This document shows, one piece after another, positions 3,763-39,835 of a DNA stretch of 64,000 bases. Each line of letters opens with the position of its first letter. The stretch's first letter is position 1. This stretch comes from a phage: the sequence record PZ496581.1, one strand, 5' to 3'. The position numbers were made by a program, and so were the translations under genes. Below the pieces are notes generated by a model that ran no database searches, was not told the origin of the DNA, and saw only the letters and a program-made list of their open reading frames with translations.

Positions 3763-4326
3763 TTACCATTCCAATGCTAATTTTTTAAATTGTTTTTGTT
3801 CTTTCACATTTTTTGTAACTTCTTTGAGAAACTCATCAGTGACCATGGCCTTCAGTTCTTTAAGGACTATTGGCAACTTGTTATTTTTTTCAAGGAGCCG
3901 CTTATACTCGGTAGCATCATTCATGTTGATTGTGTAATGTTTCATCAACAGTTTGATAACTAGTAACTCTGAAGTGTCTTCGACTAGTTTAGCCCATTTA
4001 GAGAATCGTCGGCCACGTGGAATTGCCGCCATCATATAGTTGAAGTGCGCTTCATCACTTAATTCAGAACCGACTAAGTTCATCATGTAAACGGCTGGCA
4101 TACATTCTGGGAACTGGGATAATGAGTTCTCAACCATAAATTTTGAGTAGTCGACCTGAGCAATTGACATAGATTTCTTTTCATTAATAGCATTAATGAT
4201 TTTAAAGAATTCATTCTCAGGTTTTTCTTTAAACATGTCAGCACATTTTTGAATCGCATCAGCGTCGTTAGACTTCCATGCAATTTGGTGCTCGTTAAGT
4301 TGGACGTCATCATCAAATAAGTTCAT
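3763..4326 (-). CDS. 62: clamp loader small subunit gp62
   Basis: 187-aa ORF, T4 gp62-like, ends ...[13 protein letters not shown]; placed between regA and 44. Confidence 0.92.
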
Positions 4327-38218: not shown

Positions 38219-38262
38219 TGATGGTCCTTAGAAAGTAGGTTTATTGTTTACTATATTTATAC

Positions 38263-38293
38263 AAAAAAGCCCCAACCTTTCGGAAGGGGCTAT
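38263..38293 (-). terminator. intrinsic terminator (duplicate of 27760-27790)
   Basis: same GCCCC...GAAA...GGGGC hairpin plus U tract on minus RNA. Confidence 0.6.
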
Positions 38294-38593
38294 ATACCTT
38301 GTCGGGTTCCCACCTGCTAAGGCAAGTGTTTGTACGAAACGCCGGGATTCGAACCCGGTTATTAAGCAGTTGACGCTACTCAATATTTTTAAAAGGCCAT
38401 ATCTCGACCATATCCGAACGTTCCGTCAAAAACGCTACTCGGCTTACGGCAAAGATATTTCCTCGAATCGATAATTCTGTGCGCCGTTTCTGCTGTGATG
38501 TAAGGGGATATTAACGAATCATAAAGATTTATTAAGACCAGTCCTTACTCAGGGAACATCAGTCCGACGACTTGCCGGTAGCGACCCGGCTTC
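38294..38593 (-). ncRNA. tRNA-like structured RNA region (possible small stable RNA)
   Basis: no ORF; minus-strand CCGGGTTCGAATCCCGG T-arm; GAAACG ~170 nt upstream can pair the 3' CGTTTC; terminator downstream. Confidence 0.35.
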
Positions 38594-38939
38594 TTATTTT
38601 GGCATATCATCAATTTGCTCTCGACGCCGACGCCATAGATTAATCGCTTCATAAACACATTCAGCATTTGGTATATGACGACAATAGTATAGTGATTCGC
38701 GTTTCTGGAACCGATGTTGTAATGGAATTTCGTTTAAAAGGTCTTTACGGTCAAAGTATTCAAAACTAGTTAACCCTGAACGGTTTTTAAGAAACTTCCA
38801 ATGTCCGAATTCATTTTGAAAATAGACATAATCAGCATGCTGATACAGCGAATTAATTAACCTATCGGAAATAACTGTTTCACGTTCGTTAAAATAAAAC
38901 GTTAAGTCATGAACTACCAGATAAATATTGCCCTTTCAT
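38594..38939 (-). CDS. hypothetical protein with apparent 1-nt frameshift after codon 3
   Basis: ATG at 38939 with GAGGA SD reads MKGQYLSGSS-stop; the other frame is open for 114 codons with no in-frame start codon. Confidence 0.4.
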
Positions 38940-39018
38940 ATTTTCCTCACTTGAAGTTGGTGCCTCTAGAAAGATTTGAACTCTCACCATTAACCTTAGA
39001 ATGATTATATGCTATCCA

Positions 39019-39684
39019 TTACACTATAGAGGCAATTAAATTATTTACAATATCTTCTTTATAAACTTCAGCATAATGAAGTTCATATATTTCCCATCCT
39101 AATGATTTTATAATATCATGGCGTTCTTTATAATAAGGGGCCAAAATCTTTTTCTTAGGATTGGAGTAATGTTGATTTCCATTAACTTCAATAATAATCT
39201 TTTTATCTATTAAAGCGATATCCGTGCAATACGCTCGGTTTTTAACCGGTTGGTATTCTTCAATAAATGAAATTCCGTTTTCTATTAATTTAGATTTCAA
39301 AAATTCACAAGGCACAGATTTAAATTTTGTATTTTTCTTCCAAGGATGTTTATCGGGGTTTTCATTCAACCATTTTTTCCGAGCATTAGATATTTTTATT
39401 CTAGATTCCTCAGAGTGTTCTCTACCTAATGAAGCGGCTGACAATTTTTGTCTAGTCTCTTCCGAAATTACTACAGGAACACCAGTCTTTTTAGATACAA
39501 CATACTGGTTTAAATTACCTGAAGCTATACGTGCTTTATTCATTGCTGCAATGGCTGATTTAGAACTTTCTTTATACAATTCCAATTTAGGGTTGGATTT
39601 ACACCATCTAGTGTGGTTAGCCATCCATCCTTTAGGTTTATTAGAAATATCAAATTCCATATTACAATGTTTACAAATGCTCAT
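39019..39684 (-). CDS. homing-endonuclease-like protein (Zn finger + NUMOD3-like repeats + Vsr/DUF559-like nuclease)
   Basis: N-terminal CKHC...HTRWC; ISEETRQKLS / SEESRIKIS repeats; C-terminal DIALIDKKIIIEVNGNQH...GWEIYELHY. Confidence 0.6.
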   Translation of the reverse strand: MSICKHCNMEFDISNKPKGWMANHTRWCKSNPKLELYKESSKSAIAAMNKARIASGNLNQYVVSKKTGVPVVISEETRQKLSAASLGREHSEESRIKISNARKKWLNENPDKHPWKKNTKFKSVPCEFLKSKLIENGISFIEEYQPVKNRAYCTDIALIDKKIIIEVNGNQHYSNPKKKILAPYYKERHDIIKSLGWEIYELHYAEVYKEDIVNNLIASIV

Positions 39685-39757
39685 TACCAATTATCTCCTA
39701 TAAATATAGGAGTATTTATTATTTGGATAGAGCACTTAATTTACTTCGTTTAAATTA

Positions 39758-39829
39758 CTGGCGCACTTGGACTCGAACCAAGATAAAGGAGTTAACAGCT
39801 CCCCGTAATAACCTTTATACGATGCACCA
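39758..39829 (-). tRNA. tRNA-Asn (anticodon GUU), CCA not encoded
   Basis: manual cloverleaf: 7-bp acceptor, GGGAG/CTCCT anticodon stem, loop CUGUUAA, T-arm CTTGG-TTCGAGT-CCAAG. Confidence 0.6.
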
Positions 39830-39835
39830 TTTGTT

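Follow-up and report, generated by a model that had tools for sequence, protein, structure and literature searches.

Covariation-supported folds for the orthologs of T4 RNAs C and D in a Mosigvirus-group phage, with a tRNA-like end on RNA C

What is a perfect tRNA T-arm doing in a phage locus where no tRNA is called? The question is raised by a 64,000-nucleotide (nt) stretch of phage DNA from sequence record PZ496581.1 (the window; coordinates refer to its full length), in which about 300 nt at 38294-38593 carry, on the minus strand, the T-arm CCGGG-UUCGAAU-CCCGG (38358-38342) with CGUUUCG directly after it (38341-38335). The original prediction, made from the letters alone, had noticed both and had taken them for part of one RNA, either a counterpart of the small stable RNAs of phage T4 or a new structured RNA. 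Alignment to T4 bears out the counterpart: by homology, the locus is the pair of orthologs of T4 rnaD (species 2 RNA) and rnaC (species 1 RNA), that is, two RNAs rather than one, and already-known RNAs rather than new ones.

The window phage is T4-like and falls in the Mosigvirus (RB69-like) group (best matches ~98.7% identical), and the segment is present in more than 800 phage records. Compared with T4 rnaD plus rnaC, the window shows a mean column identity of 91% (pairwise alignment, 352 columns), and within rnaC only a handful of positions distinguish the two. With the T4 annotation in NC_000866 (rnaD 119 nt at 71053-71171; rnaC 139 nt) carried over, the locus reads as follows.

38597-38478, minus strand: rnaD ortholog, about 120 nt, ends by homology to the T4 annotation
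38477-38472, minus strand: 6-nt spacer GAAUUA between rnaD and rnaC, by homology to the T4 annotation
38471-38333, minus strand: rnaC ortholog, 139 nt by the NC_000866 annotation

The likeness of the window to T4 rnaC covers homologous sequence, equal length and a position after rnaD and before a trailer and terminator; for rnaD it covers a homologous 5' hairpin, the closing helix AAGUCGUCGG/ACGGCGC and the internal loop CCCUG. The window rnaD is homologous in sequence to the one annotated in T4 and has the common structure; its long hairpin departs from T4 at the tip. The order on the strand (tRNA-Arg, rnaD, rnaC, trailer, terminator) is also that of T4, with the difference that T4 rnaD begins 1 nt past tRNA-Arg, whereas in the window an open reading frame (ORF) of ~345 nt, which is frameshifted, intervenes before the pair. 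In the window rnaC lies at the end of the phage tRNA cluster and on the tRNA strand, and in relatives it likewise lies in or at the cluster; ARAGORN calls the neighbouring tRNA-Arg (38958-39033), tRNA-Asn and tRNA-Met, which are also the sole Rfam matches at gathering thresholds. Moreover, a covariance model built from non-T4-type rnaC homologs only found the window RNA in a full-length model match at 38473-38326 on the minus strand (124.4 bits, E=4e-30). The model's one other match with E<0.01 is a genuine tRNA-Asn (39750-39832, minus strand; 20.2 bits, E=0.002), reached via the acceptor and T-arm positions. The model therefore serves as an independent test of membership and, through its weak recovery of tRNA-Asn, gives a sign of a tRNA-like frame.

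The T-arm proves to be the 3' part of rnaC, and the proposal of a tRNA-like end around a large insertion, instead of a 76-nt tRNA, stands. We aligned 30 distinct rnaC homologs, numbered from the T4-defined 5' end such that nt n is window coordinate 38472 - n. On this alignment, the fold has 91.9% of its cells paired, against 36–47% when partners are slid by 1–3 columns, and 16 pairs changed on both sides, against 1–2 when slid; none of 500 shuffles reached the observed values. RNAalifold returned identical helices, and the minimum free energy (MFE) prediction for the single sequence gave the same fold, with a folding z-score of -4.55 (-2.66 for rnaD and -5.81 for the whole region). The elements of rnaC are these.

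38470-38464 (nt 2-8), minus strand: CGAUUCG, 5' strand of the acceptor-like stem, pairs with 38341-38335 (covariation, RNAalifold, MFE)
38463-38394 (nt 9-78), minus strand: long arm P2, base AGG/CCU (covariation, RNAalifold)
38429-38424 (nt 43-48), minus strand: P2 apical loop UUGACG, exact reverse complement of the P3 loop
38393-38386 (nt 79-86), minus strand: conserved, A-rich single-stranded linker UUUAAAAA, unpaired in all folds
38385-38360 (nt 87-112), minus strand: hairpin P3, 10 base pairs (bp) (covariation; 'pot. stem-loop structure' in X03016)
38375-38370, minus strand: P3 loop CGUCAA, complement of the P2 loop
38358-38342 (nt 114-130), minus strand: T-arm CCGGG-UUCGAAU-CCCGG, 100% paired in the 30 homologs
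38341-38335 (nt 131-137), minus strand: CGUUUCG, 3' strand of the acceptor-like stem (covariation with nt 2-8)
38334-38331 (nt 138-141), minus strand: NCCA-like tail UACA, with U138, C140 and A141 invariant in the 30 homologs

Which sequence, then, closes the tRNA-like end? The original prediction had paired CGUUUCG with a GAAACG placed about 170 nt upstream. GAAACG occurs once (38490-38485, minus strand), at an actual distance of 149 nt and in the 3' part of rnaD; the 3' strand covaries instead with CGAUUCG, which stands at the 5' end of rnaC. Read from the outer end, the seven positions of this stem are C-G in 29 sequences and A-U in one; G-C in all 30; G-C in 16, A-U in 13 and G-U in one; U.U in 29 and U-A in one, twice over; C-G in all 30; and G-C in all 30. 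The 5' strand is thereby found as CGAUUCG, CGGUUCG or AGGUUCG, and position 3:70, in tRNA numbering, has A-U in 13 sequences against G-C in 16. In PM2 both middle U.U oppositions have become U-A, and its strands AGGUUCG/CGAAUCU pair perfectly. A further T4-type rnaC, on the metagenome contig OBRH01000009.1 (L080, ~4085-4240), reads CGTTTCA, with a C.A mismatch at the terminal acceptor pair.

The T-arm itself is, on comparative grounds, more than a chance resemblance, since its pairing is kept in 30 distinct homologs with exchange of G-C for U-A: the middle pair of the T-stem is G-C in 15, U-A in 13, A-U in one and U-G in one. Position 139 of the tail is A, or C in the Klebsiella phages and in PM2, where UCCA is encoded. 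Judged from these alignments, RNA C mimics the upper half of a tRNA: the RNA's own ends form an acceptor-like stem contiguous with a 5-bp T-arm, and by analogy with tRNA the stem would stack on the T-arm.

Between the two strands of the acceptor-like stem lies a body unlike that of a tRNA. P2 is held by a base pair (A9-U78) that becomes U-A in PM2 and by an apical stem in which four of five pairs have changes on both sides, and its body comes in two unrelated sequence types across genera, both of which present the UUGACG loop. P3 has 95% of its cells paired and 7 of its 10 pairs changed on both sides. Before it, AAAAU (nt 83-87, the last base being the first of P3) is invariant in 30/30 homologs. 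The loops of P2 and P3 are complementary in 99.4% of cells across the 30 sequences, compared with 17–50% in slid controls, and four Klebsiella-phage sequences in the alignment have the loops UUGGCG and CGCCAA, a compensatory change from A-U to G-C. A kissing contact between the two 6-nt loops is likely, though not proven. The 9-mer that had been reported to occur twice in the region does so, as GAGUAGCGU on the RNA strand (ACGCTACTC on the plus strand) at 38440-38432 and 38381-38373, and turns out to be the 5' flanks of the P2 and P3 loops. By itself the repeat is weak evidence, with ~0.17 such repeats expected per 300 nt and a full copy in T4-type sequences only.

RNA D folds differently. In an alignment of 25 distinct homologs, the rnaD fold has 84.4% of cells paired (36–46% when slid) and 12 pairs changed on both sides, with none of 500 shuffles reaching its covariation score. 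A conserved structure in related phages, the check that had been suggested, is thus backed by covariation for both RNAs. By this comparison RNA D consists of a hairpin at the 5' end and, after it, a long irregular one, and it is not tRNA-like. Two of its parts can be placed in the window.

38590-38574, minus strand: rnaD hairpin H1, GCCGG-GUCGCUA-CCGGC (MFE fold)
38494-38479, minus strand: 3' strands of rnaD helices S3 and S2, including GAAACG (38490-38485), paired with 38571-38555

In Karamvirus and Jiaodavirus the sequence of H1 is replaced wholesale by the hairpin UCAGAA-GACG-UUCUGA, and in phage A5-4 H1 carries a compensatory UCGG/CCGA. The closing helix is GUCGUCG/CGGCG(C)AC. In S3 (nt 37-43 with 104-110), pair 40-107 is U-A or A-U and pair 41-106 is G-C or A-U, and the tandem G.A of T4-types becomes U-A,U-A or A-U,G-C elsewhere. 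Further in, the internal loop CCCUG is conserved, the inner helix shows G-C to C-G exchanges and the tip is variable. The 3' end of rnaD is GCGCACCA in T4 and GCGCACAG in the window, so the window rnaD has no encoded CCA.

How close does this bring RNA C to a known class of RNA? With canonical tRNA (RF00005) it shares a 7-position acceptor contiguous with a 5-bp T-stem, the UUCGAAU loop, an N-(C/A)-C-A tail and a place in a tRNA operon. Unlike tRNA, it is 139 nt long, with a tandem U.U in the acceptor, no tRNA-sized D-arm or anticodon arm and no anticodon. An anticodon arm with a 7-nt loop at the usual distance was not found: the arm in the rnaC fold is 70 nt long, and after a linker of 8 nt comes a 10-bp hairpin whose loop has 6 nt. 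Nor does the stem show the G3.U70 alanine identity pair of tmRNA (transfer-messenger RNA), position 3:70 being A-U or G-C and G.U appearing only in an internal pairing that is not supported. The proposed checks with Rfam and ARAGORN, including the tmRNA mode of the latter, called no tRNA or tmRNA in the region: there was no RF00005 match at 29 bits or above, and the best match of the clan was tRNA-Sec (16.6 bits, E=1.8). Rfam matches to the region at E up to 10 were at chance level only (tRNA-Sec, isrK, ceN54 and T-arm fragments of mascRNA and permuted tmRNA), and Rfam contains no family for either RNA C or RNA D.

The likeness to tmRNA lies in the 5' and 3' ends, which form the acceptor and T-arm half of a tRNA, with a large body unlike tRNA between them. 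The difference is that rnaC has no tag reading frame and that the match to the tmRNA model is limited to the 17-nt T-arm (10.1 bits). YrlA, a bacterial Y-RNA-like molecule, is like RNA C a non-coding RNA with a tRNA-mimicking domain, with the difference that the ends of YrlA form the Ro-binding stem and its tRNA-like part is internal, whereas in RNA C it is the ends that make up the acceptor. RNase P is also known to mature phage non-coding RNAs, for example the C4 antisense RNA of P1/P7 (cited in PMC11143913). C4 is likewise a phage small RNA with a tRNA-like feature that allows RNase P to make its 5' end, as would by analogy be the case for rnaC, and it differs in being an antisense regulator with known targets; no sequence relationship to rnaC is expected.

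The two RNAs also occur apart. rnaC is found without rnaD, after or between tRNAs, in Kanagawavirus CIP9, PEi20 and Kosakonia 305, in Gelderlandvirus Melville and in Mosugukvirus PM2, and also in Moonvirus, Winklervirus, Kagamiyamavirus and Klebsiella phages (including kv_tblp8). rnaD is found without rnaC in Dhakavirus, where rnaC is cleanly missing and rnaD adjoins the trailer; in Gaprivervirus, where an ORF occupies the rnaC slot; and in Escherichia phage A5-4 (Vequintavirinae; L009 1202-1300), directly past tRNA-Met. The rnaD of UPEC06 is 100% identical to that of A5-4 over the 106-nt query. Since A5-4 belongs to another subfamily, its rnaD homolog implies that the RNA D module has been passed on horizontally. 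Karamvirus Entb_43 has both RNAs in separate places, rnaD between tRNA-Asn and tRNA-Asp and rnaC between tRNA-Trp and tRNA-Gly. From this distribution rnaC and rnaD are, as far as sequence comparison can tell, independent, mobile and dispensable modules. In T4, deletions of the tRNA region are viable on laboratory hosts. Two pattern scans of IMG/VR, one metagenome scan and BLAST walks found no lineage beyond the T4-like phages of enterobacteria and the one Vequintavirinae rnaD; in the metagenome pattern scan, the real matches were of the T4 type and the Klebsiella type only, and the remainder were chance.

In Karamvirus and Jiaodavirus genomes a stretch of ~130–150 nt of conserved non-coding sequence lies between an rnaD-like RNA and tRNA-Asp (L008 330-478; L016 and L018 670-820; L017 670-810). 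It opens with a GAAAGUUUACUUUC hairpin and may be a further structured RNA.

We hold it very probable that these parts belong together: orthologs of T4 rnaD and rnaC, two independent modules, each with the fold given above, and with RNA C tRNA-like. The processing and functional steps set out further below would follow from that likeness and are less certain. Several observations weigh against this. The RNA ends are transferred from T4, whose two records place the rnaC 3' end 2 nt apart: in the older record, X03016, species 1 RNA ends 2 nt earlier and is 137 nt long, compared with 139 in NC_000866. In all collections scanned the family was found only in T4-like phages of enterobacteria, so all covariation comes from about a dozen lineages. 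For the kissing contact, only one lineage supplies a compensatory change, which counts as one event, and four of the six loop–loop pairs are retained in PM2. Two of the seven acceptor positions are U.U in 29/30 sequences. The T-loop (columns 126-132) reads UGCAUGC or UGCAUUC, not UUCGAAU, in CIP9 (Kanagawavirus), in L051 (an IMG/VR sequence closely similar to CIP9) and in Winklervirus Kc304; the three keep the T-stem and acceptor, so the T-loop motif itself is dispensable, and together with the U.U positions this means that recognition exactly like that of a tRNA is not guaranteed. In rnaD the five central pairs of S2 are invariant, so covariation neither supports nor contradicts them. Each RNA is missing from some genera, and neither is therefore essential. 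Finally, RNase P cleavage, CCA addition and a function of RNA C in trans are steps that would hold by analogy to tRNA.

Of the other explanations, the one that fares best is that RNAs C and D are mere by-products of processing: structured spacers that act in cis by directing RNases and shielding the tRNA transcript at its 3' end, and that have no function once released. Both RNAs always lie inside tRNA clusters or end them, each is missing in some genera, and a punctuation element would require just such a tRNA-like module; in T4 no function has been found for either, and reviews describe their roles as unknown (PMC3014915). We nevertheless think it unlikely. The motifs UUGACG, CGUCAA, AAAAU and CCCUG are conserved across genera beyond what the helices need, and the modules shift independently among positions of the tRNA cluster, rnaD even reaching Vequintavirinae. 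In T4, RNAC and RNAD are classed as late RNAs of unknown function, and a Northern was made with an RNAC riboprobe (PMC9697503). Moreover, a convergent adaptive single-nucleotide polymorphism (SNP) arose in the rnaD homolog, whose function is unknown, of a T4-like phage adapting to the semi-permissive Escherichia coli strain ECOR34 (PMC12685909).

Could the region instead be one RNA of ~200 nt, with GAAACG (38490-38485) and CGUUUC (38341-38336) as its acceptor and all else enclosed? In the MFE fold of the entire 346-nt region this pairing does occur, and both 6-mers are present in every genome in which rnaD directly precedes rnaC. However, rnaC and rnaD are also found apart, and the complement is there upstream only where rnaD adjoins rnaC. 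GAAACG lies inside rnaD, which in T4 is a separate mature RNA, and rnaD helix S2 also claims C112 and G113. In lineages in which the 3' strand is CGUUCCG or CGAAUCU, the upstream sequence examined (140–256 nt per locus) holds no complementary 6-mer, and the change is compensated at the rnaC 5' end, in the strand that is CGAUUCG in the window. From these three observations – the place of GAAACG in rnaD, the missing complement in the changed lineages and the covariation elsewhere – the pairing is not conserved, and a single RNA is very unlikely. In T4 a dimeric precursor, which RNases of the host process, gives rise to the species 1 and 2 RNAs. Given the whole-region fold and the presence of both 6-mers where D adjoins C, the pairing might form transiently in such a T4-type precursor.

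A tRNA with a long variable arm, made of the 3' 93–96 nt of rnaC with ACGGAACG (nt 46-53) and CGUUUCGU (nt 131-138) as acceptor, has a following among annotations: a tRNA-Lys(ttt) is annotated and called by ARAGORN in G29, a tRNA-Phe(gaa) is called in Entb_43 and a tRNA-Phe is annotated in KKP_3262, and Rfam tRNA-Sec aligns in this internal register. The alternative pairing explains these calls of a 94–96-nt tRNA-Lys or tRNA-Phe, and it is the basis of the weak tRNA-Sec alignment, whose 16.6 bits lie far under the gathering threshold of 47. In our alignment 85.8% of its cells are paired, which is below expectation, 500 of 500 shuffles being at least as high, and its sole variable position goes from G.U to A.C (14 vs 15 sequences), the opposite of compensation. 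The implied anticodon varies between relatives, ARAGORN makes no such call in the window, in the T4-like L011 or in L013, the segment overlaps the conserved UUGACG loop, and the T4 annotation is 137–139 nt, not 93. We rejected the internal tRNA on its standing below its own shuffles and on the anti-compensatory change, and we give it only the slightest chance.

The region had also been described as free of ORFs. This stands for conserved ORFs and fails for mechanical ones, three of which (from the ORF list) overlap it.

38228-38383, minus strand: mechanical ORF, 51 amino acids
38545-38667, minus strand: mechanical ORF, 40 amino acids
38244-38474, plus strand: mechanical ORF, 76 amino acids

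That the region codes for small proteins, as these ORFs of 40–76 amino acids and the 'hypothetical protein' coding sequences annotated in many relatives would have it, is close to negligible as an explanation, given that the substitutions track base-pairing (with two-sided changes at 16 pairs in rnaC and 12 in rnaD) and not codon structure, that the site of the coding sequence annotated in G53 (L002 2604-2732) reads ATG ATT CGT TAA in the window and stops after three codons, and that T4 annotates both segments as RNAs. The coding and tRNA labels placed on rnaD and rnaC (L002 2604-2732; L012 1367-1460; KKP_3262) are likely misannotations, and in many GenBank phage records the stretch bears such a label, either 'hypothetical protein' or an unusual tRNA-Lys or tRNA-Phe.

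Downstream of rnaC two further elements were found on the same strand.

38328-38311, minus strand: trailer hairpin CACUUGC-CUUA-GCAGGUG, between rnaC and the terminator (fold)
38291-38263, minus strand: intrinsic terminator, hairpin and U-tract (folds)

The trailer hairpin is retained where rnaC is not, beside rnaD in Dhakavirus and past the inserted ORF in Gaprivervirus; being kept even in genera without rnaC, it may be a processing site of the operon. The terminator, which had been predicted to follow the region, is there as a hairpin (38291-38268; AGCCCC..GGGGCU, inner CC-GAAA-GG) followed by U5 (38267-38263). A terminator is annotated at the homologous site in phage G53, and one is annotated in G29; a simple terminator scan missed it because its loop is longer than 8 nt.

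On the other side of the pair, the ORF at 38594-38939 (minus strand), between tRNA-Arg and rnaD, matches a 114-amino-acid hypothetical protein of phage G53; it has its stop codon at about 38596 and no Pfam match. An extra G (GGG at 38933-38931 versus GG) shifts the frame, which results in a stop after 10 codons, although the remainder of the frame is undamaged; the extra G thus points either to an error in sequencing or to a pseudogene of recent origin. Further up, inside the tRNA cluster, a 223-amino-acid ORF at 39019-39690 (minus strand) sits in the slot of the T4 homing endonuclease gene segB and overlaps the 5' end of tRNA-Arg. Its Pfam matches are weak and only to DUF559, RAP and NUMOD3, and its sequence appears homing-endonuclease-like, not detectably GIY-YIG.

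To return to the reading of the locus as rnaD and rnaC, what might the two RNAs do? By analogy with tRNAs, host tRNA-processing enzymes would cut both out of the tRNA-operon transcript. The acceptor/T-arm of RNA C would be recognised by RNase P on the 5' side and by exonucleases or other 3'-end trimming and CCA-adding enzymes on the 3' side, and would confer stability, while the P2/P3 kissing complex would lock the body into a compact fold. RNA C could then work in trans by imitating a tRNA, with its conserved loops and linker as the specific contact surface. The functional reading that we prefer, tentatively and as the least certain step of all, is that RNA C ties up or redirects a host factor that binds tRNA, perhaps an enzyme of tRNA-directed defence or of tRNA processing. 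The patchy presence of the two RNAs across genera, their independent mobility and the host-adaptation SNP fit accessory, host-specific roles. A bolder proposal, and a rather doubtful one, would make RNA C a previously undescribed tRNA-mimic architecture, a CCA-ended acceptor/T-arm minihelix whose body is locked by a 6-bp kiss and which serves late in infection to bind or divert a host tRNA-recognising enzyme, for instance a defence nuclease that targets tRNA, a processing enzyme or a synthetase. In that proposal RNA D, common even to a Vequintavirinae phage, would for that reason be a second, separately mobile effector.

The locus is no discovery, yet it is tied to an old open question about the T4 species 1 and 2 RNAs. 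To these the comparison adds a covariation-backed structure, a corrected acceptor pairing, a candidate loop–loop contact, a conserved NCCA-like tail and a warning about annotation. If the bolder proposal is true, a 50-year-old 'function unknown' RNA pair would become an anti-defence or translation-control system.

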